Numbered from the stretch's first letter, positions 7,304 through 64,000 are shown. The stretch: DNA of 64,000 bases from a virus (IMGVR_UViG_3300050821_006637:1-64000); one strand, 5' to 3'. Made by a program: numbers and translations. Notes: generated from the letters alone by a model not told the origin.

Positions 7304-7441
7304 ATGAATAATCTTTATATCGGTGCGGTGCAGGTCGGTGGATTGTGGATTGGAGCTGTTCAACCAGCCTCTACGTCCGCTTTTCATCCGTTCGCAATTT
7401 ATCTTAAAAAACAGGGACTTATAGGTTCTGGAGTCTACTAA
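7304..7441 (+). CDS. 45-aa ORF with two IGAVQ motifs (below the ORF-track cutoff)
   Basis: Hand translation MNNLYIGAVQVGGLWIGAVQPASTSAFHPFAIYLKKQGLIGSGVY; TAATG overlap with the next start. Confidence 0.55.
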   Translation: MNNLYIGAVQVGGLWIGAVQPASTSAFHPFAIYLKKQGLIGSGVY

Positions 7442-9129
7442 TGTTTTCAGTTGCGATTAGTGGTCAACACCTGGGCTTCAACTTCATCAGTGCTCTCTCT
7501 GGCACTCCTTTGACTGGATTGTCTGGTCTTATTTCAGGCTATAAATCTATAGATGGTGCTGCTCAAGCTGGTATCAGTGGATTTGTGACTGAATTAGCTT
7601 TCGGTCAATATCAAGCGAATCTTTTTAGCCCTGATGTCAGTGGAAAGATAATCACTTTCTACTTCACTGGTGCAAGTGGTGCTGTTCCTGTTGAAAAGAC
7701 TGTCGTTACCACCCTCAATGTCAGTGGTCAAATCTATCCAGCATCTGGCATCAATGCTGTAGTCCCATCCGCCACTCTAAGTGGAGTGACGGCTAATTCT
7801 GGTCTCTTCGTGTCGGTGCCTATTTCTTCTATCAGTGGAGTGAATGTCGTTGCTTCTCAAGCCAGCGGAACTACTTTCCTCGCCTCGGGTAGTTTCTTAT
7901 TCGGTAGTGGGCAGTTTTATCTGGCTAGTGGGACGGATTTCTTGCCATCGGGCTCTATCTTTGCTACGACCTTTGCGAGTGGTGTCTTGGCTGGAAGTGG
8001 ACAGATATTCTTGGCTTCTGGGACACCACTATTCTACTCTGGCCTCTATTATGTGGCTTCTGGGTCTGTTACAGCTTCTGTTAGTTCTGGTTCTCTTTAC
8101 TTAGCCAGTGGTTCTATCTTTAAGAATACATTTGCGAGTGGAGTATTAGGTACTTCCGGAGGATTGCCGACTGCTTGGGGTGGTTCTGGTGCTGTTACCG
8201 ACGGACAGAATTTGGATAAGACTGGTTATACATTACTCAGTGGTCAATCCTACACAGCATCTGGCATCAATGTGACAGTTCCTCCTGCCACTCTAAGTGG
8301 AGTGACTCCCTCCTTCTCTCCAGCAGTCTTCAGTGGTATCTTCAGTGGGAACTTTGTAGTTGTCGGTTCTGTCCTCAGTGGTGTCTTCAGTGGACAACAG
8401 GTAACTCTTACCAGCGGACAATCTTATACGGCAAGTGGAATCAATGCGACGGCGACTGTTCTGTCTGGTCAAGTCTATCTTAACAGCGGTTATGTTCTCT
8501 CCAATAGTGGGCAGTTCTACGTCGCTTCCGGTTCTGTTGCAGCAACTGCTAATTCTGGCCTCTTCGTGTCGGTGCCGATTTCTTCTATCAGTGGTGTAAA
8601 CGTCGTTGCTGCTCAAGGCAGTGGGACTACTTTCCTCGCATCTGGGCAAGCAGTTTATCTGTATTCTGGTCAATCTGTTAATGTCTATTCTGGACAATTG
8701 AGTGGACAACCAGTTACTACAGGGTCTGGTCTTTTTGTTTCTGTACCAATCTCTTCTATTAGTGGAGTGAATTCTGTCGTTCCAGCATCGACTCTAAGTG
8801 GGGTAATTGCAAATTCCGGTCTTTTTGTCAGCGTGCCTATCTCCTCAATTAGTGGAGTCAATGCTGGCAATGTCTCCGTTGCCAGTGGTCAAGTGTTCTT
8901 AGCTAGTGGATGGCCTCAACAGGTTCTTACCTATAACTTCTCTGGGCTTCCAAATAATCCCGTCCACACGATGGTCAATGCTCTTCGAAAGTTGATTGAC
9001 AGATGGGATACGACGACGAATAGTGGGCAGTTGACAGTTTATCTGGAAGACGCTGCTTCGGTGGCTTATATGCAGCCGTTGACGAGTCAATCTGGTGCGG
9101 CTCCAGTAACAGCCCTTGGGGATTCCTAA
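7441..9129 (+). CDS. Ser-Gly-rich repetitive virion (fibre-like) protein
   Basis: 562 aa with roughly 57 SG dipeptides by hand count; SGLFVSVPISSISGVN occurs four times. Confidence 0.75.
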   Translation: MFSVAISGQHLGFNFISALSGTPLTGLSGLISGYKSIDGAAQAGISGFVTELAFGQYQANLFSPDVSGKIITFYFTGASGAVPVEKTVVTTLNVSGQIYPASGINAVVPSATLSGVTANSGLFVSVPISSISGVNVVASQASGTTFLASGSFLFGSGQFYLASGTDFLPSGSIFATTFASGVLAGSGQIFLASGTPLFYSGLYYVASGSVTASVSSGSLYLASGSIFKNTFASGVLGTSGGLPTAWGGSGAVTDGQNLDKTGYTLLSGQSYTASGINVTVPPATLSGVTPSFSPAVFSGIFSGNFVVVGSVLSGVFSGQQVTLTSGQSYTASGINATATVLSGQVYLNSGYVLSNSGQFYVASGSVAATANSGLFVSVPISSISGVNVVAAQGSGTTFLASGQAVYLYSGQSVNVYSGQLSGQPVTTGSGLFVSVPISSISGVNSVVPASTLSGVIANSGLFVSVPISSISGVNAGNVSVASGQVFLASGWPQQVLTYNFSGLPNNPVHTMVNALRKLIDRWDTTTNSGQLTVYLEDAASVAYMQPLTSQSGAAPVTALGDS

Positions 9130-9144
9130 GTGGGGAAGTAAGGA

Positions 9145-9612
9145 ATGCCAGAAGCAGGCTTTTCTAGTTTGACAGATTTCACTGGTCTTCCTGTGGGAGA
9201 CGGCAACTCCGTTCCCCCACCAGTTCTAGCACCAGGATTTCTTAGTCTTTTAGACTTCACTGGTCTTCCAATCGGTGCGGGAAGTTTCATTCCGTCCGCT
9301 CCACCTGTTGCTGGATTTTTGGGTCTTTTAGATTTTACTGGATTGCCGACGGGAGCAGGGATAGGCTCTCCCGTCCCTCCTGTCATTCCTCATGGTCATG
9401 GGTTCCGTGGTGCTGGACGTCATCTGACATACATCATGCGTATGGCTCAACAGATGAGGCAACAGAAGCAGAAGAGGCAGTTAGTAGAAAGAGTATTAGA
9501 GCAGGTAACCTATACTAAGAGAGTATTGGAAGAAGGTTGGCGAGCAGAGCAACAATACAGGAAGAATCTTGCTGTCGTACAGACGTATTCGATTCTTTTA
9601 GCAGAGGTTTAG
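9145..9612 (+). CDS. Hypothetical protein with 3x GFxxLxDFTGLPxG repeats and a helical C-terminus
   Basis: 155-aa ORF; repeats visible in translation. Confidence 0.65.
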   Translation: MPEAGFSSLTDFTGLPVGDGNSVPPPVLAPGFLSLLDFTGLPIGAGSFIPSAPPVAGFLGLLDFTGLPTGAGIGSPVPPVIPHGHGFRGAGRHLTYIMRMAQQMRQQKQKRQLVERVLEQVTYTKRVLEEGWRAEQQYRKNLAVVQTYSILLAEV

Positions 9613-9631
9613 AGGAAAGTGAGGTGCCAGT

Positions 9632-10914: not shown

Positions 10915-10928
10915 GGAGTAGACTAAAG

Positions 10929-11129: not shown

Positions 11130-11139
11130 GGAGACGCAG

Positions 11140-11544: not shown

Positions 11545-11849
11545 AACTCGCCTCAATATCTGCGGAAGCCGTCGCCACTTGCCTCTGTTGCGGATGGGAA
11601 CAGAAGCCTCCTATGCTACGATTAGTTCACTCCACCAGAAAGAAAGAGGAAATACCCCTCTCCAAAAAGATAGAATTAGCAGAACAATCCGTTCTCGCTC
11701 ATCTGCGAGATGCACATGATAGGTTAATGTTGACGAAAGAAAAGATAGATTTGGGTGAAGAGGGGGTTAGGTTAGATTACCACGGAAGACGACCAGAGAA
11801 GAGTTTAGAGATTGCTTTAACGCGAGGCGGAAGGAAGTGGGGTAGATAA
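11541..11849 (+). CDS. Hypothetical protein with CxxC...HxxxxH
   Basis: ATGA overlap; CLCC and HLRDAH. Confidence 0.55.
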   Translation: MKLASISAEAVATCLCCGWEQKPPMLRLVHSTRKKEEIPLSKKIELAEQSVLAHLRDAHDRLMLTKEKIDLGEEGVRLDYHGRRPEKSLEIALTRGGRKWGR

Positions 11850-12508
11850 TGGCAGGAGAGATTCAATTTAGTTTCGTAACGAGCAAAGTAACATATGCAC
11901 TCGTCCGTAATACGAATGCCCTCATCTACTCCCCAGCATTCGGTGGCTTCTCTGGCTATTCCTCTCCACTTTATTCTGGCTACGCTATCCCTTGCACAGA
12001 GCAGGGAGCATCTGCCTATTATGTTGGAAACTTTCCTTCCGTTTCTCCAGGCGTCTACAACGTCGTTTCAAAGCAAGCCGTCACTGGTGTTCCACTTGAG
12101 TCAGACCCGACGACGGACGAAGGTGAAATAGAATGGGGTGGTAGTGGCGTCGTTCCCCTCGTCAATATCGCTGCTTCTGGTATCCCAGAAACCATCCAAC
12201 TGAGACGAAGTTGGATGGTGAGGAATTATCCTGTCTATCTTCGTAGCAGTGCAGATAATGTCAATCCGTTCGTTAGTGGCTCTGTTTCTGGGATGGTGAG
12301 CCAGGATGGAGGAAATGCGGTTTCCTTGCAGAGTGGGTCTTTTACACCAGTGATAGGAATCCCAGGGCTTTATAATTTGCAGAGCTTGACGAGTGGCGAT
12401 TTAAACGCCGGAACGATTACTCTATTATTCCAAGGAACCATCTCTGGTGGTGGTGTATCTTCTCCCCTAGTTCAATCTTTTGTCCTTCAAAACCAATCTG
12501 GTTCTTAG
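11849..12508 (+). CDS. Ser-Gly-enriched two-domain virion protein
   Basis: C-terminal half (SQDGG...GLYNL..LTSGDLN..TITLLF) resembles the N-terminal domain of 7441..9129 (SIDGA...GQYQANL..DVSG..ITFYF). Confidence 0.7.
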   Translation: MAGEIQFSFVTSKVTYALVRNTNALIYSPAFGGFSGYSSPLYSGYAIPCTEQGASAYYVGNFPSVSPGVYNVVSKQAVTGVPLESDPTTDEGEIEWGGSGVVPLVNIAASGIPETIQLRRSWMVRNYPVYLRSSADNVNPFVSGSVSGMVSQDGGNAVSLQSGSFTPVIGIPGLYNLQSLTSGDLNAGTITLLFQGTISGGGVSSPLVQSFVLQNQSGS

Positions 12509-14187: not shown

Positions 14188-16020
14188 ATGAGTGGAAGCT
14201 GGGAGATTAAGGAGAGGCAGAAAGTCCTCCTCTGTACTATTCACACAGAGGCGACTTCTATCCACTGGGCTGCTGGATTCAAGAACCTCATCATTCCAGG
14301 TTCCTTCCACTTTGTGAGCGGAATGCCGTTTGACCACGCACGGAACGCTTGCGTCCAAACTCTTCTAAATTCTCCTTATGAGTATCTCTTCTTTTTAGAC
14401 AGCGATGTGATACCACCGCCCGATGCGATACTCCGTCTTCTGGCTCACAACCAACCGATTATGAGCGGAATGTATTGTCGTCGGTCACCTCCTCACTCCG
14501 TGCCTGTGATGATGAAGAATCATCAATGGGTGACGAAGTTTCCAATGGGTTCCGTGGTGGAGGTGGAATTGGTAGGAGCGGGGTGCTTGCTCGTTCATCG
14601 CTCTGTGTTTGAAAGAGTTCCAGCACAGAGACCGGGTAAGAATTGGTTTGATTGGCGGGTTGACCAAAAAGGACATATGCCCGACCCTCTGTGTTTGAGT
14701 GAAGATTACACTTGGTGTTTCCCCCCAAATACGTGGGTGATTGGGGACCATCCAAAGAAGATAGCTGATGTGAAGGTGGGAGACCGAGTTGTCACACATA
14801 CAGGTTCCACACGTAGAGTGCTGGACAGGAGCAGCCGACTTTATTCTGGAGATATGACACGTTTGCATGTTTGTTATCTTGGAAGGATAGAAGCAACGCC
14901 AAGTCATAAATTTTATGTGAGGACAACAAGGCCAGCAGGTAGAACTGTTAGGATTCCAGATTTTATGGCATGTTATATGGATGGAGTGCAGACAGTTGCA
15001 GAAGTCACTACCAAAAAGACGTTATGGGTCGAATCTAAGGATATCCAAGTTGGAGACTGGCTCTATGTTCCCAAGGTGTCGATTCGTAAAGGGGCGGGGT
15101 TAAAGACTACAAATCTTGGTCATCATATTAGTACACAGAAATTGATACAGTTCCCGGATGGATTATATGGATACAGTAGGACTAGGAAAACGGCGTTGCG
15201 GTTGCCTGGGAGATTGGAGATTACACCAAACTTGTGCCGTCTTCTTGGATACTATATTGCGGAAGGTATGTCAACAAAAACGTATGCAAGTTTTGGGTTC
15301 AATGCAAATGAGGAAAAGACGCTAGTTAAAGATACCCAAGAAATCTTATCTGAAGTATTCGGTGCTAAATCAAAATATTATGTAAAAGGGAATGGGATAA
15401 ATTTGTATGTCCCGTCCAAATTACTGGCTCGTTTGTTAGCGTCTCTGTGTGGTAACGGGTCTAGTAACAAACATCTCCCTAGATTCTGGCACAAGTTGAA
15501 TAGGGAATGTTTGACGGAACTTTTGAAAGGATATTGGTGGGGCGACGGGTGTTTTAGTGATGGTGGATTTTCGATGAGGACCATTTCAGAAAGATTAGCA
15601 AAGGAATTGCAAGCGGCATTTCTTCGTCTTGAAGTTTTGACTAGCATCTGTTACCAAAAGAGTCAGAATGCGTATGATCTTCTAGTTCCAGTAGAGTTAG
15701 GTATGCGATTCCGAAGCATTGTTGGATATTCTGGAAAGGTCACGTTGCCACAGAATCAGATATTTCGAGAAACTAATACACATTTTCTGGTGCGAGTCAA
15801 TAAGGTAGAAACTTTTGGTTATGAAGGGTTGGTGCATAATCTTAAAGTGGCTGGGGTTGAATCATATACGGCGAATGGAGCAGCAGTCCATAATTGCTAT
15901 CATGTAAGGCAACACGGCTATCGTATATTAGTAGATAGTTCGGTTCGCTGCCGTCACGTTGGGATGGCAGAGTTTGATTATGGCTCCGTCCTCCCAGCTC
16001 AAGTCCCTGCTGCTGCCTAA
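14188..16020 (+). CDS. GT-A (GT2-like) glycosyltransferase interrupted by an intein
   Basis: DHARN, YLFFLDSDV (DxD), VGAGCLLVHRSVFE, SEDYTW|intein|CYHVRQHGYRILVD..VRCRHVG; spliced product about 217 aa. Confidence 0.9.
   Translation: MSGSWEIKERQKVLLCTIHTEATSIHWAAGFKNLIIPGSFHFVSGMPFDHARNACVQTLLNSPYEYLFFLDSDVIPPPDAILRLLAHNQPIMSGMYCRRSPPHSVPVMMKNHQWVTKFPMGSVVEVELVGAGCLLVHRSVFERVPAQRPGKNWFDWRVDQKGHMPDPLCLSEDYTWCFPPNTWVIGDHPKKIADVKVGDRVVTHTGSTRRVLDRSSRLYSGDMTRLHVCYLGRIEATPSHKFYVRTTRPAGRTVRIPDFMACYMDGVQTVAEVTTKKTLWVESKDIQVGDWLYVPKVSIRKGAGLKTTNLGHHISTQKLIQFPDGLYGYSRTRKTALRLPGRLEITPNLCRLLGYYIAEGMSTKTYASFGFNANEEKTLVKDTQEILSEVFGAKSKYYVKGNGINLYVPSKLLARLLASLCGNGSSNKHLPRFWHKLNRECLTELLKGYWWGDGCFSDGGFSMRTISERLAKELQAAFLRLEVLTSICYQKSQNAYDLLVPVELGMRFRSIVGYSGKVTLPQNQIFRETNTHFLVRVNKVETFGYEGLVHNLKVAGVESYTANGAAVHNCYHVRQHGYRILVDSSVRCRHVGMAEFDYGSVLPAQVPAAA
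14716..15894 (+). mobile_element. Intein with LAGLIDADG homing endonuclease (393 aa)
   Basis: Block A CFPPNTWV, block B ATPSHKFY, LLGYYIAEG and LLKGYWWGDG, block F/G VHNLKV...YTANGAAVHN followed by Cys+1. Confidence 0.92.
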
Positions 16021-18632: not shown

Positions 18633-18850
18633 TGGACGAAGAAATCTGGTATATGGATTGCTACTCCTTCCACGCTGCCTGTGGTGACCTTTTCCCTGTC
18701 CACTCTTACCACGGAAATGATTTGGAGTATTTGATGAAGAAGGGGAAGGAGTTGCTAGAGAGGGACTCAAGTGGCGTAGATAAGGTTTCCTTTGCTAGGA
18801 CGAGTGATGGTTGCAATCCAATAGAGATAGAGCAGGAGATAGAACCTTGA
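18629..18850 (+). CDS. Hypothetical protein
   Basis: GTGA overlap. Confidence 0.55.
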   Translation: MMDEEIWYMDCYSFHAACGDLFPVHSYHGNDLEYLMKKGKELLERDSSGVDKVSFARTSDGCNPIEIEQEIEP

Positions 18851-18852
18851 AG

Positions 18853-19959
18853 ATGCGAATAGCAGTTATCTCCTCATCCGTCTTTCCTGTTGGTGGGCAT
18901 CAAGGACTTCCGGGATATGGAGGATTGGAATCGATTGCCTGGTGGTGTGCTCGGGGTCTCGCTGCGAAGGGACACGACGTCACCCTCATCGCTCCACAAG
19001 GTTCGACGTGTCCTGGTGTGGAAGTTTTTGAATGTCTTCCTCCTGGTGGCTTTGCAGAGCAGCATCATTATGGAGGATGTGTCTATAATGATGCCAACGG
19101 ACAGCCTATTCAGTGGGCTGGGTACTGGCAGAAACTTTTAGAACTACAGGAGAAGGGTGACTTCGTAATTCTCGACCATAGTTGGAATAAGATGAGTGCC
19201 CTCTTAAAGATGGAGGGACGTCTTTCCAAGACGCCTATCCTTGGCGTCTGTCATGCTCCTGTGTCAACAATGTACTCTTCTCTCCCCCCAGAAGGCATAG
19301 TCTCTTTCGTGTGCATCTCAGATGACCAGAAGGCACACTTTGAGGCACTCCACTCTCCGAGGACTGCTCGTCGTGTCTATAACGGAATAGACTTGGATTT
19401 CTATCGTCCTATAGAGACACCCGGGAGTGATAGATACTTATTTCTGGCGAGATTTAGTTCAATAAAAGGACCGGACATCTGTCTTAAGGTGTGTAATGAA
19501 GCAGATGTTGGATTGGATTTAATAGGGGATTCAACGATTACCCAAGAGCCTCAGTATTACAATTATTGTTGCTCTTTGGCAGATGGTGTAAAGAGGAGAG
19601 TAGTGGGAAGCGTGCCTAGAGGTGAGGCTGTCTGGTGGTACTCCCAAGCTAGGGGGTTCCTCCACCCAATAGGAAATAGATTCCGAGAACCATTTGGTCT
19701 AGCACCAGTAGAAGCCCAAGCGTGTGGTTGCCCAGTCTTGTCTTTTAATTTTGGAGCACTACGGGAGACTGTCAAGCACGGAGAAACAGGCTTCTTAGTT
19801 AAGACGGAAAAGGAGATGTTAGAGGTGATTAAAAGCAGTGCTTTGGATAGTTTGAGCAGACAAAGATGCCGAGAATGGGCATCCCAGTTTTCCATTCAAA
19901 ATATGATTCTCGGATATGAGAATCTGTGCCAAAGAGCCTTAGATGGGGAGGTTTGGTAA
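18853..19959 (+). CDS. GT-B (GT4-like) glycosyltransferase
   Basis: MRIAVIS..YGGLE, GHDVTL, VYNGID, RFSSIKG, EPFGLAPVEAQACGCPV (Ex7E), ETVKHGETGFLV. Confidence 0.92.
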   Translation: MRIAVISSSVFPVGGHQGLPGYGGLESIAWWCARGLAAKGHDVTLIAPQGSTCPGVEVFECLPPGGFAEQHHYGGCVYNDANGQPIQWAGYWQKLLELQEKGDFVILDHSWNKMSALLKMEGRLSKTPILGVCHAPVSTMYSSLPPEGIVSFVCISDDQKAHFEALHSPRTARRVYNGIDLDFYRPIETPGSDRYLFLARFSSIKGPDICLKVCNEADVGLDLIGDSTITQEPQYYNYCCSLADGVKRRVVGSVPRGEAVWWYSQARGFLHPIGNRFREPFGLAPVEAQACGCPVLSFNFGALRETVKHGETGFLVKTEKEMLEVIKSSALDSLSRQRCREWASQFSIQNMILGYENLCQRALDGEVW

Positions 19960-21978: not shown

Positions 21979-23091
21979 ATGAGCCTCCTCTTTCTTACCG
22001 CAGATGAACTCGGTTCCTGGACAGGAGGTTCGACAGTCGCTAGCCAGGAATGCTTGGCGCTTAAGGAGTTCGCTGACCAGTCTGTCCGCCAGAGGAGAGA
22101 CGCCACGCTATCCTCTGTCAAAGTGTTGAGCAGAAGGGAATTGGGTTCCACTTTAGAGGAGCCATGGAAGTGGGATGAGGTAGCATTGAAGAGGTTAGAT
22201 GAGACGGCTACCATCCCACGTCTCTGTCACGTCTATTCTGGCACGTTTTCTAAAACCATCAAATGGTTGAAGGAACAGGGGACGAAGGTCACTTGGACGA
22301 TTGCTGCCCATGACGTCGCCATCTCCAAGCGAGAACACGAAAAGTTAGGATTGCCGTTTCCTTATCTCCATCTCACAGAAAAGGCTTTGTGGAAAAGATA
22401 TATCTCGGGCTACGCGATGGCAGATGTGATTATCTGCCCTGGTTTGGAACCAGCAGGGGTCGTAAGGAGATATGGGGAGGAATTCTTACAGAAAAGAATA
22501 GAAATCATCCCTCACGGATGTCATCTACCAGAGGAGATAAAGCCTCTCCCAAAGACTTTTGTTGTAGGGTACTGCGGTGCCATTTGCGGCGGCGACAAGG
22601 GGGTTAGATACTTACTTGAGGCGTGGAAGCGGCTTAACTACACCGACGGCTCTCTGTTAGTCATAGCGGGCAAAGATAGCGTTTCTCCGTGGACTCGTCA
22701 TCTGTTGAATACCTATGGAGGGGGTTCGGTTCACTTGGCAGGATGGCAGAAAGACATGAGTGATTTTTATAATTCTATTTCTTTATTCGTCTGTCCCGCA
22801 GCGACGGAAGGCTTTAATTTAGAAGTAGTTGAGAGTCTTGCTCATGGTCGTTCTGTTCTCTGTTCGAAGAATGCTGGAGCAGCGGATTTGACGCCAGAAG
22901 GTTGGCGGGTTCCTGCGTGTGATGTGGATGCTTTGGTGGATAGGATAAGGATGGCTAGAAACGCAGTAGAAAGTTCTTATAGTTTTGATTGGCAGGGAAG
23001 TTGGAAAGAAAGAGCAGTAGATTACACTTGGGAGAAAGTCCGCGGAATGTACAAATCCCTTTGGACGGAGGTCTTATATGGAAAAGAGTAA
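21979..23091 (+). CDS. GT-B (GT4-like) glycosyltransferase
   Basis: ADVIICP, IEIIPHG, DKGVRYLLEAW, EGFNLEVVESLAHG (Ex7E), YTWE. Confidence 0.9.
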   Translation: MSLLFLTADELGSWTGGSTVASQECLALKEFADQSVRQRRDATLSSVKVLSRRELGSTLEEPWKWDEVALKRLDETATIPRLCHVYSGTFSKTIKWLKEQGTKVTWTIAAHDVAISKREHEKLGLPFPYLHLTEKALWKRYISGYAMADVIICPGLEPAGVVRRYGEEFLQKRIEIIPHGCHLPEEIKPLPKTFVVGYCGAICGGDKGVRYLLEAWKRLNYTDGSLLVIAGKDSVSPWTRHLLNTYGGGSVHLAGWQKDMSDFYNSISLFVCPAATEGFNLEVVESLAHGRSVLCSKNAGAADLTPEGWRVPACDVDALVDRIRMARNAVESSYSFDWQGSWKERAVDYTWEKVRGMYKSLWTEVLYGKE

Positions 23092-25189: not shown

Positions 25190-25389
25190 CTTCCATTCCC
25201 TCGCCTCTATTTTGGATGTGGCAAATCCCAGACTTCCTGCGTGAAATAGATAGAGTGAAAGAAGCACTCCAAACAGATGAAATCAAAGATTTCCGTCTCT
25301 GGCTGGCAGAAAGATGGGGAGTGAATTTAAATAGAGAAGAGATGAAGGACGGAATAAGAATAAAATCATGCACGAAGCGCATCAGTTAA
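25186..25389 (+). CDS. Hypothetical protein
   Basis: ATGA overlap. Confidence 0.45.
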   Translation: MTSIPSPLFWMWQIPDFLREIDRVKEALQTDEIKDFRLWLAERWGVNLNREEMKDGIRIKSCTKRIS

Positions 25390-26108
25390 CTTTTCCAAGA
25401 ACCAGTAATCCCTTGGTTTCTGTCCTCCTTCCCACTAGAGGACGAAGTGAATGGTTATTGAAGTCCGTAGATAGTTTGCATAGTCAAGCCGTCCACAAGG
25501 ATAAGATAGAATATCTCTTTCGTGCCGACCCAGATGACTTGGAAACGATTTCTACTTGTTCTAGGTTAGTCAATACTCTCCCCAATGCGGTTCTTAATGT
25601 AGAGCCACGGGGAAGAGGTTATTTGGATATGCACTTTTGGATTTCCAAACTCGCTAGCATGGCTCGCGGAGATTGGCTACTAATTTGGAATGATGATGCG
25701 ATGATGAAGACACCCCATTGGGATGACCTGTTGCTCAATGGCTCTGTTCAATGTTGGCACAAGTGCCCAGATGTTTATATGTATGTCTTACCGAGTAGAG
25801 GGCGTCCTGGTTGTTATGAGTTCATGTTTCTTCGTCGTTCGGTGACACAGATACTCGGGCACTGGTCTCTTTCTCCACATAATGACAATTGGATAATGCG
25901 GGTGATGTTAGGAGTGAATTCTGTCTGTGGTATACCGATAGAAGTAGACCATTTAAGTGATAGGATGACAGATAAGATTAGGGAGGAGACTGTCGCTGCC
26001 TATGGAGATGGACAATTGGCGAGGGAAACTTTGGAATCTCCGTGGGCGCAGAAGGCTATAGAAGAAGATATTAGGAAGTTAGCAGAGCACATTCAAAAAA
26101 ATGTCTAA
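25368..26108 (+). CDS. GT2-family glycosyltransferase
   Basis: VSVLLPTRGR, EYLFRADPDD, ARGDWLLIWNDDA, HNDNWI. Confidence 0.88.
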   Translation: MHEAHQLTFPRTSNPLVSVLLPTRGRSEWLLKSVDSLHSQAVHKDKIEYLFRADPDDLETISTCSRLVNTLPNAVLNVEPRGRGYLDMHFWISKLASMARGDWLLIWNDDAMMKTPHWDDLLLNGSVQCWHKCPDVYMYVLPSRGRPGCYEFMFLRRSVTQILGHWSLSPHNDNWIMRVMLGVNSVCGIPIEVDHLSDRMTDKIREETVAAYGDGQLARETLESPWAQKAIEEDIRKLAEHIQKNV

Positions 26109-33940: not shown

Positions 33941-34714
33941 ATGAAACAGATAGACGTAGGCACGTTTGAAACGACCCTCCACGGACTCCCCTTCCTCTGT
34001 AGTGACGATGCTGCTGTAGGCAGGGTAATCAAAAAGAATGAATATGAATTGAGTGAAATCTACACCATCACTCAAGCTATCAAGCCTGGAGATGTTTTCG
34101 TTGATGCTGGAGCAAACGTCGGCATCTTTACAACCCTCGCTGCCAAACTCGTTGGCTCTACTGGCAGAGTGTTCTCTTTTGAACCAGACCCCTTCAATCA
34201 AAAGATTCTTCGTACCAACGTAGAAAAGAATGGTTTTGGGGATAGAGTGCATATTCATAACGCCGCTGCTGGTGCGAAACAAGGATGGAAGTTCCTCTAT
34301 CAAAGCATCAACAATACTGGTGACCACAGAACCTGGAACGACGGGAAAGAGGAACGACCGACGGCTTCTGTAGAAGTACAATCCATTGATGATGTTTTGA
34401 AGGATTGGCAGAGGATTGATGTTCTCAAGGTTGATGTCCAAGGGGATGAGATGAATGTGCTTCGGGGAGCAGAGCAAGTGATTGACCGCTCCCTCGGTAT
34501 GTTTTTATCCATAGAATATTGGCCTTACGGATTAACACAGAATGGAAGTTCCCCAGTTGAGTTTGCCGACTGGCTGTTCTCTCGCTTCGTCTGTTATGTG
34601 ATGTATCCACAGCAAGCTGGGATGATGCAATCTTGCACGAAGGAAGCCTTGTTGAATGTTTTTGGACATAACGATGACCAAGTATTGAATCTTTGGTGTG
34701 TTAGAAGGCGATAA
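33941..34714 (+). CDS. FkbM-family SAM methyltransferase
   Basis: VFVDAGANVG, VFSFEP, IDVLKVDVQGDEMNVLRGA. Confidence 0.92.
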   Translation: MKQIDVGTFETTLHGLPFLCSDDAAVGRVIKKNEYELSEIYTITQAIKPGDVFVDAGANVGIFTTLAAKLVGSTGRVFSFEPDPFNQKILRTNVEKNGFGDRVHIHNAAAGAKQGWKFLYQSINNTGDHRTWNDGKEERPTASVEVQSIDDVLKDWQRIDVLKVDVQGDEMNVLRGAEQVIDRSLGMFLSIEYWPYGLTQNGSSPVEFADWLFSRFVCYVMYPQQAGMMQSCTKEALLNVFGHNDDQVLNLWCVRRR

Positions 34715-55081: not shown

Positions 55082-56548
55082 ATGGCTGCTCCTACTTTTG
55101 AGACGGTAGCCCTGGCCACCCAGCAGAACGGCGAGGCTATCCAGTCGTTGAATAAAACCCTCGGGACTGTTGTTGATAAACTCTCCCGTATGCCAATGCC
55201 CGGACAACCGACGCCGGAACAAGCATTCGGTACTCCTTGGATTCGTAATGGTGAGAGTTCTTTGGATGACTCCAGAGGCTTCTCCTACCTCAAAATGATT
55301 GGGCACATCGCTGGCTTCGTCCCAGACGAGCAGTGCAAGCATGAGCGGAACCTCGCCATGAGAATGGCGAAGTGCCTCTATGCGGATGCTGGCAACGACG
55401 GCTATCAGTGGGCTTCTCAGAATCGCCTTGGTGAGAAGAAATTCCTCGCTCCACTCGCTCCTAACTTCCTCCAGGACAACTTCGTTGACCGGAGCTTCCG
55501 TCGTGAGATGAAGCAGATGGTCGCCGCAGGGACGGACGGAGCCGACCTGGGAGAAGCGAGCTGGATTAAGCGAAAGATGCTTTCCCAGCAATATGGGACG
55601 AAAGCCCTTTCTTGGTTGAATGAACTCACTGGTGGTGCTATCGTCGCTCCGCCTGAGATGGGTGAGTTGATTGAACTTCTGAGAAATAAAGAGGCTCTGG
55701 TCAATGCAGGAGCCAGAGTTGTTCCTCTACCTCCACAGGGTAGATTAAAGTATCCTCGCCAGACTTCTCCATCCAATACCTTCTGGGTTGGTGAGAACTC
55801 TCCTATCACAGAATCCATCGTCGGTACTGGTGAGATTACTCTGCAAGCTAAGAAGCTCGCAGTCCTCATCAAGGCACCGAACGAGTTGATTCGTTTTGCC
55901 TCACCTGCGGCAGAGGCGTTGCTCCGAGACGATATGACGAAGAGTTTGGCTCTTGGTTTGGATTTGGCTGGATTAGAGGGACAGGGGAGTGACGTCAAGC
56001 CTCGCGGTGTGATTAACTATCCTGGAATCAACAGAATCCAGTCCTCTCAGATTGGTGTTAACTCTGGTGGTGTGGTAGTTGGACAGGACATCTACCGAAT
56101 GATTGCTGCGGTAGAGGAAAGTGACGCGGAGTTCGAAGCGTACATCATGCGTCCGAAGACTCTGTATAAGTATTATCAGCTGCGAGCTGATGCCGTCGTG
56201 GCGGGTGATGCGGCTGGTCCGTATCTGTTCAACCTGATTAGAGAGGCACAGGATGACACGCCCGCTTCGTTGGCTGGTTATCCCGTGGTGAAGTCGACTC
56301 AGGTTTCTCAGACTCGTTCCTATGCGGCTGCGACAAATCTGACCTATGTGGTTGGTGGAATGTGGAGTGATATGCTCATCGGTATGTTCGGTGCGATTGA
56401 GTTCGCGGCGACCACGATGGGTGACACCGCTTTCGTCAATGACCAGACGTGGGTGCGTGGTATTCTGTCGGCGGACGTGCAGTTGAGGCACGAGGCGGCG
56501 TTCGTTTTACTTGACAATCTCAACACTCTAGTTACGGCGGCAAGCTAA
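55082..56548 (+). CDS. Major capsid protein, HK97 fold, with N-terminal delta domain
   Basis: GGAIVAPP, YPRQT, WVGENSPI, ITLQAKKLA, NELIR, LEGQG..PRGV, LAGYPV, D..LRHEAAF; likely maturation site GTK174|ALS. Confidence 0.93.
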   Translation: MAAPTFETVALATQQNGEAIQSLNKTLGTVVDKLSRMPMPGQPTPEQAFGTPWIRNGESSLDDSRGFSYLKMIGHIAGFVPDEQCKHERNLAMRMAKCLYADAGNDGYQWASQNRLGEKKFLAPLAPNFLQDNFVDRSFRREMKQMVAAGTDGADLGEASWIKRKMLSQQYGTKALSWLNELTGGAIVAPPEMGELIELLRNKEALVNAGARVVPLPPQGRLKYPRQTSPSNTFWVGENSPITESIVGTGEITLQAKKLAVLIKAPNELIRFASPAAEALLRDDMTKSLALGLDLAGLEGQGSDVKPRGVINYPGINRIQSSQIGVNSGGVVVGQDIYRMIAAVEESDAEFEAYIMRPKTLYKYYQLRADAVVAGDAAGPYLFNLIREAQDDTPASLAGYPVVKSTQVSQTRSYAAATNLTYVVGGMWSDMLIGMFGAIEFAATTMGDTAFVNDQTWVRGILSADVQLRHEAAFVLLDNLNTLVTAAS

Positions 56549-56686: not shown

Positions 56687-57574
56687 ATGAGTTCTATTAC
56701 AGGGACGCTTTCTAAGGAACTTTGGAATCACAGACGGGACGTCATTATTTCTCGTTTCCAAACAGACGACCCGAAGGATATTGCTAGAGACCTTGGTATG
56801 GATTGGACGAGTGTATATCGTTGGGCACGAAAACTAGGTATTGCTCCTAAAGGCAATGTCCGTCGCGCCCATCGCAATCAGTCCTGCAACATCCATTACT
56901 TTGACCAGTGGTCGCCAAATATGGCATATATCCTGGGGTATCTTTTTGCAGATGGCTCAGTTACGGAAGCTGGTGTAACGGCAGATGCTACTGAAAGTGA
57001 CAAAGGTATTTTAGAATTCATCAAGGCGGAAACTAATTCGGTTTTGTCTATCAAAACATATGCCGGTACAAACGGGACGAAGACTTATTGTAGGATTCAT
57101 CTTAATAGTAAGGTTATAAGAAATAAGCTGGTTGAGTTAGGAATGAAGCCCTCTAAAACATACTTAGATGATCCGTATCCAAATGTTCCAGAAGAATTAA
57201 ATGGACACTTTGTTCGGGGATTCTTTGATGGAGATGGGAGTGCTAGTAAAGACGGAACTGAGATTAAATTTATAGGAACCATTAAATTTATCCGGGGTCT
57301 AATTGGCTCTCTTGTTCAATTAGCTGGTATGAAAGAAGCCAAAATCACTAAGTTTCTAGGAGAAAGAGCTACTTGGTGTGTTGTTCATTGGCACCACCGA
57401 GATGATATTGAAAGATTTTACCGTCACATTTATCCTGTAGACGGTTACGGGTTCTGTTTGGAACGTAAGCGGGCTAGGTTGGCGGGACGGCTCGCGAGAC
57501 CTTATCGTGTCAATTGTGTTCCGCCGGCTTTTAGACGCAAAGGAGGGATGGCTGAATGTCAGCAAATCTCTTAA
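56687..57574 (+). CDS. Free-standing LAGLIDADG homing endonuclease with N-terminal HTH
   Basis: DIARDLG..WTSVYRWARKLG; AYILGYLFADGSV; HFVRGFFDGDGS; LERK. Confidence 0.92.
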   Translation: MSSITGTLSKELWNHRRDVIISRFQTDDPKDIARDLGMDWTSVYRWARKLGIAPKGNVRRAHRNQSCNIHYFDQWSPNMAYILGYLFADGSVTEAGVTADATESDKGILEFIKAETNSVLSIKTYAGTNGTKTYCRIHLNSKVIRNKLVELGMKPSKTYLDDPYPNVPEELNGHFVRGFFDGDGSASKDGTEIKFIGTIKFIRGLIGSLVQLAGMKEAKITKFLGERATWCVVHWHHRDDIERFYRHIYPVDGYGFCLERKRARLAGRLARPYRVNCVPPAFRRKGGMAECQQIS

Positions 57575-58248
57575 TAGATTTGGGTAATACGGGTCATTTT
57601 AACCCGTCCCTAATCGCAGTCAATGGCCCGCAGTCTGGTACGGTTATTGGTCTACCTATTGATTTGGGTGACGCCAATACCTTTACCAATGTCTGGGTCG
57701 TTGCCAACGTTGCCAGCGGTCCTATTACGTTGCAAGTCCAGTGTAGTGATAGCCCTTCGGGCTTTATCCCCTGGGGTGGAGGAGTCCCCCCTAGTGGAAC
57801 CTTCACAGACCCCACCAGCGGTGCGGCTCAGTTGCCGACAAACTTTAATTCTGGTGGGCTTCTAATTATTAATTCTGGGACTTATGCCATTCCTGGAGGA
57901 GGAGCTCCATTTTCCGGTCAGCCTGGTGTTCCCGGTGGCTATGTGGCTGGCTATGCTCCGGCCTCCTATCCGTTCGGTGCCACTCCAGTTATAAATGGTA
58001 TGGGAGGAACTGCTTTCCTATTTAGTGGTTTGTTCCCAGAATTTGCCTCTGGTGGGATTGGTTTCGGAGGCTTCCAAAGAACCGGACAGTATGCCAGATT
58101 AAACCTGCTGGTTGGTTCTGGTGGCGGTAGTACAAGTGGTGGACAAGTCGTTGTCATCGGGGGATTCCTCTCTCAGAAACGCACCACGGGTTCTGGTGGC
58201 GGTTTCACGTGGCTTCCTCAATCCGGACCCAATGTCGCCAACGTGTAA
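57556..58248 (+). CDS. Gly/Ser-rich putative capsid decoration protein, paralog 1
   Basis: Position after the capsid gene; shared FTDPTSG, FQRxG.(Y/W)AR, GF.SQ, GGGF.W.P.SG. Confidence 0.7.
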   Translation: MSANLLIDLGNTGHFNPSLIAVNGPQSGTVIGLPIDLGDANTFTNVWVVANVASGPITLQVQCSDSPSGFIPWGGGVPPSGTFTDPTSGAAQLPTNFNSGGLLIINSGTYAIPGGGAPFSGQPGVPGGYVAGYAPASYPFGATPVINGMGGTAFLFSGLFPEFASGGIGFGGFQRTGQYARLNLLVGSGGGSTSGGQVVVIGGFLSQKRTTGSGGGFTWLPQSGPNVANV

Positions 58249-58260: not shown

Positions 58261-59013
58261 ATGAGCGCTAATCTTATTGTTGATGTAACGAATACCGCAA
58301 ACTATGAAGTTTCGGCATTTGCTAATACGAACAACCTCTCTGGTGCTACTACTATCGGGCAGATAGTAGACCTGTTGAATAGTGACACGTACTGCAACCT
58401 GTTCGTTGTAGCACCAGGAGTATCTGGCGTCATCCAGGTGCAGGTTCAATGCACAAACCAGTTGAATGACGCTGGGTCTGGGTCATTCTGGTCGGGTGGT
58501 GGTTTCCCTGTGTCGGGAGCTTTTACTGACCCAACGAGTGGGCTGCCACAACTGCCGACTGTCTTCCAGTCTGGTGGTAACGTCTACTTTAATAGTGGAG
58601 TTTATCAACTTCCAGGTGGGGGATTTCCTCCTACTTCGGGAGGTAATATCCAACCATTGGTTGGTGGTTATCCTGCTGGTTCTGTCCCATTTGGTCTTAC
58701 GCCGATTTATAATGCCCAGGGCGGGGCGTATCCTATTCCAGTTCTTTCTGGTGGTGGGACTGGTGGCACTAGCGGCGGTGTGCTGAGTGGCTTCTTCCCT
58801 GTCTTCGCTTCTGGTGGAATTGGCTTCGCTGCCTTCCAGCGGACGGGACGATGGGCAAGAGCTAACATCATAACGACTGCACTTACAGCAGTTTCCGGTA
58901 CAGCGACTACTCCAATCTTTGCCGGTTTTATCAGTCAATTGGACACAACTGGTTCTGGAGGAGGTTTCAGCTGGCTTCCTCAATCTGGTGGTGGGAACAC
59001 CGCCTCTGTCTAA
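58261..59013 (+). CDS. Gly/Ser-rich putative capsid decoration protein, paralog 2
   Basis: Same motifs as 57556..58248. Confidence 0.7.
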   Translation: MSANLIVDVTNTANYEVSAFANTNNLSGATTIGQIVDLLNSDTYCNLFVVAPGVSGVIQVQVQCTNQLNDAGSGSFWSGGGFPVSGAFTDPTSGLPQLPTVFQSGGNVYFNSGVYQLPGGGFPPTSGGNIQPLVGGYPAGSVPFGLTPIYNAQGGAYPIPVLSGGGTGGTSGGVLSGFFPVFASGGIGFAAFQRTGRWARANIITTALTAVSGTATTPIFAGFISQLDTTGSGGGFSWLPQSGGGNTASV

Positions 59014-59029
59014 GAAGTGTTTATCCAAG

Positions 59030-59074: not shown

Positions 59075-59088
59075 AAGAGGGATGTGAT

Positions 59089-59406
59089 ATGAGTGCCTAT
59101 AATGCACCTGTGATTCCAACACAGACGACACGCAGTATCAATATCGGTTGGGTTGGATTGCCGATGAATACCGCCAATCAGATTTTATCAGCCAATGCTA
59201 ATCGTGAGAAGGTCATTCTCAATGCTCCAATTGTTGGTGGTTGTAATATTTATCTAGATACCAGTAATACTGTTAGTCCCACCACGAGTTTCCTTATTAC
59301 TCCTCTTCCCGCTGGTGGTTTGGAGCTAGATTGGCCTACAGATATATGGGCTTATGCAGAAGCAGCTAATAACCACATAACATTTGCTGAGAGTGTTCTC
59401 AGTTAA
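59089..59406 (+). CDS. Small beta-rich virion protein
   Basis: QILSANANREKVIL...IYL..VS....IWA pattern typical of small head-associated proteins. Confidence 0.6.
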   Translation: MSAYNAPVIPTQTTRSINIGWVGLPMNTANQILSANANREKVILNAPIVGGCNIYLDTSNTVSPTTSFLITPLPAGGLELDWPTDIWAYAEAANNHITFAESVLS

Positions 59407-59416
59407 GGGGACAAAG

Positions 59417-60178
59417 ATGGCTCAGCAGATTGTAGACCTCGGATCACGGGCACAATTCGTGCCTTCCATAGTTGGTGCCAGTCCGTCCTCTGGTACTCTG
59501 GTCGGCTTTCCTGTGGATATGAAGGATGCTGATTCATACTGCAATGTTTGGGTCGTTACGACGTCATGTAGTGGTCCATTCCAAATCCAAGTACAGACAA
59601 CAGACACATTAAGTGGTTTGTTAGTTTCTGGTGGTGGAGTTGTTTCAGGCGCTTTCACCGACCCCACATCTGGACTGGCTTCCGTCTCAGTAGGAACTAC
59701 TTTTCCTACATGGTTCCAGTCTGGTGCAATCTTAACTATTAATTCTGGTTTATGGCCGACTATTGGTGGGGGGATGGCTCAATCGGCTGTCAGTGGTTTT
59801 CCGCTTAGTGGCGGAGTCACACAAGCCTATATGGGAGGATTCCCTCAAGGAACTTTCCCATACGGATTGACACCTACCATCCAGTTCATGGGCGGTACGG
59901 CTTTTGTACCGAACACACCGGGAATATCTGGTGTGGGGGCTGGTATCCCCCGCTTTAATTCTGGTGGTATGGCTGTTGCCGGATTTCAGAGGGTTGGTCA
60001 ATATGCTAGACTGCTCCTCCTCTCAGGTGGTACAAGCACCACGGTAATCGCTGGTTTCCTGTCTCAACTTATGGGCGGAGGCGGCGGGTTTTCCTGGAGT
60101 CCTGGCTCTGGTCTCTCTGGCGGTGTGGGAGGAACGGGATTCGTCGGTAATGGTGCAATTGGAATGCCACTTGTTTAG
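59417..60178 (+). CDS. Gly/Ser-rich putative capsid decoration protein, paralog 3
   Basis: Same motifs as the two genes above; ATG 59417 after AAGGGG. Confidence 0.7.
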   Translation: MAQQIVDLGSRAQFVPSIVGASPSSGTLVGFPVDMKDADSYCNVWVVTTSCSGPFQIQVQTTDTLSGLLVSGGGVVSGAFTDPTSGLASVSVGTTFPTWFQSGAILTINSGLWPTIGGGMAQSAVSGFPLSGGVTQAYMGGFPQGTFPYGLTPTIQFMGGTAFVPNTPGISGVGAGIPRFNSGGMAVAGFQRVGQYARLLLLSGGTSTTVIAGFLSQLMGGGGGFSWSPGSGLSGGVGGTGFVGNGAIGMPLV

Positions 60179-62379: not shown

Positions 62380-62546
62380 TTTCTCCGTAAGTGTTGTAGT
62401 ACAATATCAAATAATTATCGCTTGTGCTAAAATCAATCATCTCAGATTTCATGGTGGATAAGAACTCTCTCTAATCCTTACACTACCAGTGGTGGGTTCC
62501 CACATCTATGTGAGAGGGCCTAGACTAAAAGAGTGGATAAAATATT

Positions 62547-64000
62547 ATGTTAATCGGTCCCTTTCAACTACTTTCCGGCTCTGTACAGAGTGGCAATACA
62601 GGGAATTCTGCCATTCTGTCGGGGAATCTCGGCAGTGGGCAGATAGGAAGTTTCCATCTGGCCAACGGAGCCGTATTGAGTGGAGATGTTGGACTCTTAG
62701 CTATCTCCAGTGGGAATCTCGGCACCCAAATCATCGGTGTCGTCCACATCCAATCTGGGGGACTAGGAAGCGGAGCACTCGCTTCCGGTGCTATCACCCC
62801 ACTCCTCTTTAGTGGACTAATCGTCAATCAATCGGGTTCCATCACGTCGGGACTCCTTGCTACGGCGAGTACGACAGCAGCAGTGGCGAGTGGAAACATT
62901 GCTAGTGGCTCTGTCGGTGCCGTACACTTCGCTAGTGGCATCAATTTCCTCTCTTCAGGGAGTGTGATAAGTGGCTACCTGGGTTCAGGCTCCGTCAACA
63001 GCGGAGCCATATCAAGTGGCATCATCGCTTGGTTTAACTTGTCCTCTGGAGCCGTTCGTTCAGGCAATCTGGCTCAAGGCTCCGTCTACAGCGGAATTTA
63101 TGCCCCTGCCAGCATCGGTACTATTCATGTTATCAGCGGAGGATTCCTGTCCGGGGCATATGGAAGCGGACAAGTCGGTCCGTTCATCCTTTCGTCAGGG
63201 GCGGTACAATCGGGCAATATCAGCAATAATGCCGTTCTGTCAGGGAACATCCAGGCTGGTCAGATATCTACGCAACATATCCAATCAGGTGGCTTTGCGA
63301 GTGGAGCGTTAGCGAGTGGAACTTTACTCGCCAATCAATTCGGTTCTGGGATTACTTTCGTCGGCAGTGGGTCGGTAGGCAGTGGAAGTTTAGCTTTCAA
63401 TTCGGTGTTATCTGGGAATATTGCCAGTGGGCAGATAGGTTCTTTCCATCTGGCGAATTTCTCTGTTCAAAGTGGAGACATAGCAAGTGGAGCAGTTACA
63501 TCGTTTGGGATTGCATCTGGTCAAATTTCTACTCTTCTGGTTGTTAGTGGTGGCTTCGGTTCTTCAGCGTATGGCAGTGGGTCGGTCGGGCGGTTCACAC
63601 TGGCACCTCTTTCGGTTTGGTCGGGGGCTCTTGGCTCTGGGTCCGTTACCTCCGGTATTATTGCCAGCGGTTCACTCGGCTTATCCCAAATTGTTAGCGG
63701 GGGTATCGGTAGCGGGTTACTATCTTCCGGAAGCGTCGGAAGTATCTTCCTGGGTGTCGGAGCTGTTCTATCAGGAAATGTTGGCTCAGGTGCAATTACA
63801 AATTTCCAAATCGCTTCAGGAACGATTGGAACGCTTTCCATCGTTAGTGGAGGACTCGGCAGTGGTTCCATCGCTAGTGGAACACTAACAGCTTTCAACT
63901 TCGCCAGTGGAGCCACCTTCCTCTCAGGCTCCATCGGTCCTGCTCAACTCTCCAGTGGTTCCGTCGGTAGCGGCGTCGTCGCCTCTGGTGCAATCCAAGG
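62547..64000 (+). CDS. Ser-Gly-rich 5/10-residue repeat fibre-like protein; partial, absent from the ORF track because no stop lies in the window
   Basis: Hand translation MLIGPFQLLSGSVQSGNTGNSAILSGNLGSGQIGSFHLANGAVLSGDVG...; the same frame reads SVGSGVVASGAIQ at the window end. Confidence 0.85.
   Translation, partial: MLIGPFQLLSGSVQSGNTGNSAILSGNLGSGQIGSFHLANGAVLSGDVGLLAISSGNLGTQIIGVVHIQSGGLGSGALASGAITPLLFSGLIVNQSGSITSGLLATASTTAAVASGNIASGSVGAVHFASGINFLSSGSVISGYLGSGSVNSGAISSGIIAWFNLSSGAVRSGNLAQGSVYSGIYAPASIGTIHVISGGFLSGAYGSGQVGPFILSSGAVQSGNISNNAVLSGNIQAGQISTQHIQSGGFASGALASGTLLANQFGSGITFVGSGSVGSGSLAFNSVLSGNIASGQIGSFHLANFSVQSGDIASGAVTSFGIASGQISTLLVVSGGFGSSAYGSGSVGRFTLAPLSVWSGALGSGSVTSGIIASGSLGLSQIVSGGIGSGLLSSGSVGSIFLGVGAVLSGNVGSGAITNFQIASGTIGTLSIVSGGLGSGSIASGTLTAFNFASGATFLSGSIGPAQLSSGSVGSGVVASGAIQ

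Follow-up and report, generated by a model that had tools for sequence, protein, structure and literature searches.

This study concerns the dipeptide Ser-Gly (SG) in the virion proteins of an uncultured metagenomic virus and the cluster of sugar-related genes that accompanies them. The stretch analysed, IMGVR_UViG_3300050821_006637:1-64000 (64,000 nucleotides, here called the window), is the first 64 kb of one linear virus record of 89,066 bp, for which the CheckV completeness estimate is 85%; this genome is referred to as G000. The gene order begins with beta-helix tailspike-like genes (1513-4920 and 5977-7290) and a fibre module (7441-12508), continues through the sugar cluster (14188-36468), three giant proteins and an HK97-type major capsid protein (MCP; 55082-56548), and closes, after three small paralogues (57556-60178), with a head-tail adaptor and a long fibre extending past the window end. 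A preliminary description of the window had proposed that SG is a selected O-glycosylation sequon of head decorations and fibres. Sequences and structural models show SG to be under selection in the outer virion proteins of one phage clade, as a motif that is specific to serine and located in loops, and we tentatively propose that it may also accept glycans.

SG and the reversed dipeptide GS were counted in 59 open reading frames (ORFs) of the window, and each protein was shuffled 300 times to obtain an expected SG value and a z score. The SG-rich proteins and the capsid protein used for comparison are as follows.

7441..9129, + strand: SG-repeat fibre protein, 562 aa; SG 57, GS 12, expected 13.0, z 14.0
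11849..12508, + strand: SG-enriched protein of the fibre module, 219 aa; SG 10, GS 4, expected 4.1, z 3.4
55082..56548, + strand: HK97-type MCP (PF05065 at 2e-33), SG-poor comparator; SG 1, GS 1, expected 2.5
57556..58248, + strand: cement/decoration-like paralogue 1, a predicted beta-sandwich (family alignment and model); SG 14, GS 3, expected 4.4, z 5.4
58261..59013, + strand: cement/decoration-like paralogue 2 (P0011 of the cement family; Asp, Glu, Lys and Arg together 4.0%); SG 16, GS 4, expected 4.4, z 6.6
59384..60178, + strand: cement/decoration-like paralogue 3, aligning with the family, with its probable start at the ATG at 59417, which is internal to ORF 59384-60178; SG 15, GS 2, expected 5.8, z 4.6
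62547..64000, + strand, the ORF continuing to genome position 65048: five-residue-periodic SG fibre, 833 aa; SG 60, GS 32, expected 20.7, z 10.9 within 62547-63998, and SG 96, GS 45, expected 31.3 over the full ORF 62547-65048

A large SG excess is therefore seen in six of the 59 ORFs, the remaining 53 having z values of at most 2.6. The per-protein comparison of SG with GS had been suggested in the preliminary description, whose hand counts for 7441-9129 (57 versus 12 GS) and 57556-58248 (14) were right; the proteins at 11849, 58261, 59417 and 62547, which it had listed as similarly rich, also show the excess, and the effect as a whole is stronger than it had noted. Enzymes and giant internal proteins gave no excess in the shuffle test. 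Outside the window, a 1119-aa tail protein (ORF 71198-74557) has 35 SG and 10 GS against 13.9 expected, all of the SG lying in its C-terminal two thirds, and a 134-aa ORF (79574-79978) has five SG and no GS against 1.4 expected. The tail-tube-like ORFs at 65491 and 66031 contain zero and one SG, respectively. Homologues of the latter (66031-66717) in relatives show a mild bias of SG over GS (6/0 in L002, 5/0 in L020, 5/1 in L023, 4/0 in L025 and 6/3 in L021); the copy in the genome under study has 1/1.

The serines of these SG dipeptides are encoded by both codon families, 118 by AGY and 130 by TCN. At the DNA level, 7441-9129 contains two short tandem arrays, 62547-64000 contains none, and the dispersed repeats are 60-86% identical. 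Use of both codon families, together with the near-absence of tandem repeats, indicates that the bias was selected at the protein level. In eight SG-rich proteins, 248 of 476 serines stand directly before Gly, versus 65 of 841 serines in 15 other proteins. The observed/expected ratio (O/E) is 3.26 for SG, and TG, NG and DG are depleted (0.49, 0.34 and 0.59, respectively), which shows the bias to be specific for serine; the same proteins also hold 228 serines outside SG. Chance or composition as the cause was ruled out by the shuffles and by the GS and TG controls, and a DNA-level cause, either a codon motif or recent tandem duplication, by the codon usage and the scarcity of DNA repeats. Collagen-like GXY repeats were considered and rejected, none being present in the SG protein sequences.

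The architecture of the 7441 protein consists of an Ig-like N-terminal domain (residues 1-92), an uncharged shaft punctuated by SG (approximately 96-500) and a predicted C-terminal trimerisation domain (approximately 492-562). Its SG dipeptides are spaced mostly by 7 and 12 residues, punctuating strand-like units, and relatives also use units of 4 and 8 residues. In the structural model the N-terminal domain is an Ig-like sandwich with a predicted local distance difference test score (pLDDT) of about 95, and seven of its eight SG serines are in coil, mostly two to three residues ahead of a strand; the shaft, modelled as a monomer, did not fold (pLDDT of about 35, and 35-42 across runs). A three-copy prediction of residues 300-562 scored 0.53 versus 0.00 for the best control. 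In calibration, 20 of the 30 proteins whose solved structure is a pair of one chain attained this mark, compared with one of the 23 solved as single chains, although, unlike the calibration, the three-copy run used three copies and its own alignment; its runs agree in at least 51% of contacts, with a partner pLDDT of at least 39. Confident inter-chain contacts were confined to the C-terminal domain (492-562), and the 7441 protein is probably a trimeric fibre held by that domain. Database comparisons gave it no name: PDB sequences produced chance-level rows alone, the ESM Atlas returned only unnamed viral clusters with scores up to 0.84, and a fold search of the model matched only generic Ig/filamin-like domains to its N-terminal domain (Z up to 8.0). 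Among the 105 homologues listed for the family, SG totals 5251 and GS 813 against 1104 expected. The family has several interchangeable N-terminal domains, one of them the domain type of the 11849 protein; in one relative of the 7441 protein (P0122), an N-terminal domain of the 11849 type is joined to an SG shaft of the 7441 type, an instance of domain shuffling.

The 833-aa fibre is more strictly periodic, with 74 of its 95 SG intervals measuring 5 (41 times), 10 (24 times) or 15 residues (9 times). Its unit is S-G-x-[IVL]-x, and Ile, Val or Leu occupies position +3 after 73 of the 96 SG. Neither a Pfam family nor a PDB sequence matched this fibre at E values up to 1. The canonical pentapeptide family (PF00805 and relatives) was considered for it and set aside, the periodicity and central hydrophobic residue fitting but the Pfam match being absent.

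The cement-like proteins form a discrete family of 128 homologues, with 89 representatives found by profile search among 1.84 billion sequences. The 120 homologues listed contain 1492 SG and 439 GS against 458 expected, each having 8-16 SG, and approximately 11-12 SG columns are nearly invariant at a mean identity of 33%. When eight conserved SG columns were followed through 26 cement genes, every column used both AGY (3-10 genes) and TCN (16-22 genes) codons. The model of paralogue 1 is a beta-sandwich with a pLDDT of 66, in which coil accounts for 13 of the 14 SG serines and no SG serine falls within a strand. Its best Foldseek matches were small capsid chains of Agrobacterium phages 7-7-1 and Milano, at weak E values of 0.018-0.12, with none at or below 0.001. 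In about 20 loci the cement gene directly follows the MCP gene.

As SG stands in coil ahead of strands in both the 7441 N-terminal domain and paralogue 1, an SG followed by a beta-strand is a grammar shared by the fibres and two different sandwich domains. On the evidence of sequences and models, SG is thus a strand-start turn motif, placed ahead of almost every beta-strand and usually two to three residues from it, common to at least five unrelated outer virion proteins. The proteins that bear it, by the same evidence, are the trimeric fibres, the 833-aa five-residue-periodic fibre, the three cement-like paralogues and a tail protein.

A second property of the SG-rich proteins is that they are almost devoid of charge. 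Asp, Glu, Lys and Arg (D+E+K+R) make up 1.6-5.3% of their residues versus 20-34% in most other proteins; individual values are 3.6% for the 7441 protein, 1.6% for the 833-aa fibre, 4.0-5.3% for the three paralogues and 20.1% for the MCP. Five such residues, three of them Asp, occur among the 405 of the 7441 shaft, and eight among the first 700 of the 833-aa fibre. Across 70 ORFs, SG O/E and charge are inversely correlated (Spearman -0.39, p 8e-4). The depletion extends through the families, whose medians are 6.3%, 6.7% and 8.3%, and would make sense if glycans supplied the hydrophilicity.

The sugar cluster directly follows the fibre module, and its identified members are given below.

14188..16020, + strand: weakly Anp1-like extein (mannosyltransferase family; Anp1 E 0.0034, below cut-off) with an intein
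18811..19959, + strand: glycosyltransferase (GT) of family GT4, GT4-1, GT-B fold, soluble (PF00534 at 9.9e-19, PF13439)
21979..23091, + strand: second GT4 glycosyltransferase, GT4-2 (PF13692 at 6.2e-20, PF00534 at 1.2e-13)
25368..26108, + strand: possible GT2-like protein, weak (PF00535 E 0.002, 18.5 bits against a cut-off of 23.3)
26101..27900, + strand: B12-dependent radical S-adenosylmethionine (SAM) C-methyltransferase (PF02310 and PF04055)
27854..29614, + strand: nucleoside diphosphate (NDP)-sugar 6-dehydrogenase with an intein (N-terminal, central and C-terminal UDPG_MGDP_dh domains; Intein/HINT; TIGR03026 at 8.8e-40)
33941..34714, + strand: FkbM-family methyltransferase (PF05050 at 5.1e-19; TIGR01444 at 1.5e-30, above cut-off)
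34741..36468, + strand: multi-domain class I methyltransferase (Methyltransf_11 in three stretches, 1.2e-24)

The preliminary description had counted five GTs in the window. Two of these are firm (the GT4 enzymes at 18811 and 21979) and two are weak (25368 and 14188), and no fifth emerged from the scan of 42 window ORFs; ten additional small ORFs were likewise without a GT. Its NDP-sugar dehydrogenase (27854), its B12 radical SAM enzyme (26101) and its methyltransferases (FkbM and multi-domain class I) were recovered through the domains listed. The protein at 14188, the first conserved gene of the cluster, matches LAGLIDADG_3 at 6.3e-10 and Intein_splicing in Pfam, and its homologue in the relative G003 is uninterrupted (221 aa, 55% identical) and likewise weakly Anp1-like. 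GT4-1 matches solved GT-B enzymes over its full length (E 1e-19) and has orthologues at 48-49% identity in G001, G003 and L053; those of GT4-2 are at 35-44% identity in the same three, and in relatives it is always paired with GT4-1. No NCBIfam match was obtained for the 25368 protein, and the 26101 protein matches the NCBIfam KedN5 family at 9.2e-69 with 232 bits, under that family's cut-off of 700. No other enzyme of the locus is as conserved as the 34741 methyltransferase, whose homologues in G001, G002 and G003 are at 34-38% identity and which is represented in L018 and L003 too. The enzyme families alone would suggest a methylated, uronic-acid-containing glycan. Inteins interrupt two cluster enzymes of the window (14188 and 27854) and also radical SAM genes of G002 and, probably, of G003.

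A simple hydropathy scan revealed no convincing transmembrane segment in the cluster. Tyrosine integrase was found in none of four genomes (serine recombinases were not searched, and G000 is 85% complete), and a thymidylate-synthase-type hydroxymethylase likewise in none of the four. Without a membrane gene, an integrase or a hydroxymethylase, a soluble cytoplasmic acceptor is favoured over hydroxymethylated DNA, and lysogenic conversion of the host surface and DNA glycosylation are both disfavoured on gene content.

Three related genomes (G001, G002 and G003) were examined whole; their guanine-plus-cytosine content is 54-56%, against 46% in the genome under study. Gene order is conserved in the sequence SG fibres, 11849-type gene, sugar cluster, multi-domain methyltransferase, giant proteins, MCP and cement gene, and loci with MCPs of 59-69% identity have an SG-rich cement gene directly after the MCP. 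In G000, G001, G003 and L053 the SG fibres are immediately followed by the sugar cluster, which recurs wherever the contigs of relatives cover the region 3' of these fibres; homologues of the 11849 gene stand directly upstream of the cluster in G001 and G003, and homologues of the 833-aa fibre adjoin the GT4 pair in L053. In L053/G010 the SG fibres (SG/GS 57/3, 9/1 and 95/32) are followed by the GT4 pair. Five of the nine virus records with a cement gene carry the pair (G001, G003, G004, G012 and G013), as does the fibre-bearing G010. The four cement-bearing records without it are G005, G014 and G015, which are 21-32% complete, and G002, whose contig begins inside a different sugar cluster (radical SAM enzymes, a thiamine pyrophosphate enzyme, a DegT aminotransferase and a GT2-like gene) and which was for that reason dropped as a GT4-less counter-example. 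The tailoring genes vary between genomes, as expected of a diversifying glycan.

Outgroup relatives of the MCP (G006-G009) had PF00534 in none of four and no SG-rich cement gene in the loci seen, a weak observation on fragments that are 21-79% complete, and a metagenome-assembled genome (MAG), G011, had 23 GT matches on other contigs and is uninformative. Three cultured phages have fibres that weakly match the 833-aa fibre, and PF00534 and PF00535 were found in none of them; two of these fibres have DG, AG or NA at the turn, with SG near expectation.

Several further features of the relatives were recorded. A small SG-rich protein directly follows the multi-domain methyltransferase in G001 (57300-57905, SG/GS 10/1), G002 (17526-18188, 10/0), G003 (37803-38414, 9/1) and L003 (449-967, 10/0), and the ORF at the corresponding place in the window (36493-36927) has one SG only. 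The G002 sugar cluster contains an IS605 OrfB/TnpB-like gene with a Cas12f-like TNB domain (L046:12176-13303, - strand). At the end of the G001 sugar cluster lies a sigma-70-like factor (L041:13399-14100), a weak homologue of which (27% over 201 aa) is found outside the window at genome position 77756-78676 on the - strand. MAGs labelled Parcubacteria, Patescibacteria and Phycisphaerales contain the clade contigs L057, L058, P0075 and L061-L064 in their bins, and a host scan of genome contigs yielded only two MAG contigs, both resembling binned phage DNA. Several clade contigs come from assemblies with 'Hain-H14-01um' in their names, which we take to be a groundwater small-size fraction.

The interpretation that we put forward, at somewhat less than an even chance, is that the strand-start SG turn would also serve as an O-glycosylation acceptor. 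The loop serine would be glycosylated in the cytoplasm by the conserved phage GT4 pair, after which the variable enzymes encoded nearby would lengthen and modify the glycan, namely the NDP-sugar 6-dehydrogenase, the B12 radical SAM enzyme, the FkbM and class I methyltransferases and the GT2-like protein. Recognition would involve a short element of strand, SG loop and strand and no long sequence, as in the serine hyperglycosylation of bacterial adhesin repeats, and the resulting coat would shield the outer proteins and offset their near-absence of charged residues. Precedents that support this proposal are TibC, SdgA/SdgB and the glycans of mycobacteriophage particles. Also in its favour, the bias that the preliminary description had read as a sequon is real, serine-specific and confined to outer virion proteins, and a conserved soluble cluster adjoins the genes concerned; the turn position, however, fits structure as well.

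Several observations weigh against such an acceptor role. The SG serines occupy turn positions just before strands, as would those of a structural motif, and near-invariance over a divergence to 33% identity is more typical of structural residues than of glycosites. A profile search for remote SG-less cement relatives returned only the family itself, its weakest members being fragments, and the beta-helix tailspike-like proteins are not SG-rich (SG/GS 9/17 for 1513-4920 and 6/6 for 5977-7290). The models of the shaft, from which the exposure of its serines would be read, are of low confidence (pLDDT of about 35-42). GT4-1 has as its nearest solved sequences an unnamed GT and UDP-glucose:tetrahydrobiopterin glucosyltransferase, which acts on a small molecule, and the solved matches of GT4-2 are glycogen synthase-type C-terminal domains only. 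Every informative relative carries a GT cluster and none is GT-less. As all relatives belong to one MCP clade (59-69% identity), the co-occurrence of SG proteins and GT cluster, a check raised in the preliminary description, is a single evolutionary event and no independent replication. The third of the GT-less cultured phage fibres, that of a Terrisporobacter phage, has 14 SG against 4.2 expected, together with 10 GS.

A purely structural role for SG is nearly as likely as the acceptor role. SG would then be a tight-turn or strand-initiation motif of uncharged, beta-rich and partly trimeric proteins, with Ser taken over Asn or Asp since NG and DG are chemically labile or charged, and the sugar cluster would have a different purpose, for example a change of the host envelope during infection or the making of a small glycoconjugate. 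Such a role would accord with the loop serines at strand boundaries in both usable models, the periodicity in the fibres (5/10/15 and 7/12 residues), the trimeric fibre supported by the three-copy run (0.53 versus 0.00 for the control), the near-invariance of the serine over deep divergence, the depletion of NG and DG, the moderate SG repeats in the fibre of a GT-less cultured phage and the resemblance of GT4-1 to small-molecule GTs. It leaves unexplained why one dipeptide recurs in at least five unrelated folds and not in the MCP, tail-tube-like or tailspike-like proteins, why the turn is S-G here and D-G, A-G or N-A in the two weakly matching GT-less fibres, and how the outer proteins dispense with charged residues; furthermore, a cluster lacking membrane or export genes, an integrase and a hydroxymethylase leaves few other targets.

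Two other explanations we consider improbable. The cluster might glycosylate the virion at other Ser or Thr residues or at terminal segments, SG being an unrelated structural feature: the phage precedent places glycans at the C-termini of capsid and tail-tube subunits (PMC12619734), and the 228 non-SG serines of the SG-rich proteins offer alternative sites, but the MCP is SG-poor and normally charged, what sets the outer proteins apart is their SG motif together with a depletion of charge, and the GT cluster adjoins the SG fibres. Slightly less probable again is that the SG serines are modified otherwise, through nearby kinase-like or methyltransferase domains, or that the bias reflects selection for chemical stability or a non-stick surface only. 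In favour are the depletion of NG and DG, the multi-domain methyltransferase, conserved beyond all other enzymes of the locus, and a PI3/PI4-kinase-like domain in 43884-47465. However, that domain belongs to the giant proteins of another module, nothing ties kinase-like or methyltransferase domains to the SG proteins, and methylation of protein Ser hydroxyls is not known for any enzyme family.

A broader form of the acceptor proposal, which we hold slightly more doubtful than the proposal itself, is that SG at strand starts is the minimal structural sequon of an undescribed O-glycosylation system widespread among uncultured aquatic and groundwater phages. The conserved soluble GT4 pair would load hundreds of loop serines in fibres and capsid cement proteins, rapidly diversifying tailoring genes would vary the glycan, and the glycan would take over the solubilising role of charge. 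If the SG serines do carry glycans, environmental phages would have virion glycosylation as a design principle of a whole clade, beyond a few mycobacteriophages, and a two-residue sequon readable from sequence would make glycosylated virions predictable from metagenomes. It would also explain the solubility of outer proteins with 2-5% charged residues, and the cement protein with the GT4 pair would make a simple test system. If SG is only structural, the analysis still defines two large families in which the grammar of beta-strands is unusual and uncharged: a trimeric fibre punctuated by SG and a cement protein rich in SG.

The three giant proteins 5' of the MCP (2234, 1193 and 1947 aa; window 37004-54998) have weak 2'-5' RNA ligase/Acb1-like, C39-peptidase-like and PI3/PI4-kinase-like domains, and a GIY-YIG endonuclease ORF (48101-49162) lies between them. 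The MCP and the first cement paralogue are separated by a LAGLIDADG homing-endonuclease-like ORF (56687-57574), which has homologues at this site in L015, L021 and L031 but not in most other relatives. Directly after the 1119-aa tail protein, and thus beyond the window, comes an M14 zinc carboxypeptidase whose N-terminus is hydrophobic (L013:12574-13632, genome 74574-75632). In a tblastn search of a phage collection for cultured relatives, the 7441, cement and 1119-aa tail proteins had no match and all MCP matches were below 30% identity, leaving no close cultured relative there; PHROGs gave no family for nine of ten structural proteins.

Among known proteins, short repeats with defined corners are found in pentapeptide proteins, with their Rfr-type A(D/N)LXX repeats, and in triple-beta-helix fibres such as T4 gp5, with VXGXXXXX repeats. 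The SG fibres resemble these in their short units (5, 7, 8 and 12 residues), a small residue or glycine at corners, alternating hydrophobic residues and a predicted trimeric C-terminal domain; they differ in that the corner is almost exclusively Ser-Gly and that the shaft models are of low confidence. In animal proteoglycans, Ser-Gly xylosylation sites stand in acidic contexts. Ser-Gly is there a glycan-bearing dipeptide and a UDP-glucose dehydrogenase feeds the pathway, a likeness to which the preliminary description had appealed; the analogy fails in that the SG proteins are nearly free of acidic residues and that no UDP-xylose synthase-type match (UDP-glucuronate decarboxylase/epimerase) was present among the 42 window ORFs scanned.

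Closer parallels are offered by bacterial serine glycosylation. SdgA and SdgB glycosylate Ser-Asp dipeptide repeats, are encoded beside their targets and protect them from proteases (PMC3794999; PMC8561734). The phage system is alike in its GT-B enzymes (PF00534, PF13692 and PF13439), its repeated dipeptide containing Ser and the nearness of GT genes to targets, the SG fibre genes (7441-12508) lying upstream of the cluster (14188-36468) here and likewise in G001, G003 and L053. The Ser-Asp repeats of SdgA/SdgB (minimal DSD) belong to the disordered acidic stalk of a secreted cell-wall protein, whereas the phage has Ser-Gly in uncharged, folded, beta-rich virion proteins with Asp nearly absent. 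TibC heptosylates serines and not threonines in TibA, including Ser-313 in QNSGG (PMC4358343). TibC and AAH, acting on TibA and AIDA-I, provide a cytoplasmic, serine-specific hyperglycosylation of a repetitive, beta-rich passenger, with an N-S-G-G serine among the sites; the phage sequences would be consistent with such an acceptor in their TG O/E of 0.49 versus 3.26 for SG and the position of SG serines in loops. The enzymes differ, those described for TibC/AAH forming a dodecameric heptosyltransferase family and those of the phage being GT4 and GT2-like, with no Glyco_transf_9-type match in Pfam scans of the cluster proteins. Membership of SdgA/B (wrong dipeptide and context), of the bacterial autotransporter heptosyltransferases (BAHT; no heptosyltransferase match) and of proteoglycan xylosylation (no acidic context and no UDP-xylose synthase-type match) was rejected on these grounds, and the literature searched yielded no description of a Ser-Gly sequon on phage virions, which is no proof of absence.

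The nearest phage precedent is that of mycobacteriophages, whose capsid and tail-tube subunits are reported to carry glycans at their C-termini (PMC12619734, citing Freeman 2023). The two cases would share a tailed phage with soluble GTs of its own which, on our reading, would coat its own particle in the cytoplasm before lysis. They differ in that the MCP here is SG-poor and normally charged, and the candidates, known from sequence alone, are fibres and cement-like proteins in which SG occurs at hundreds of internal positions. By analogy, the phage system would work most like SdgA/B and BAHT, with an outcome like the virion glycosylation of mycobacteriophages.

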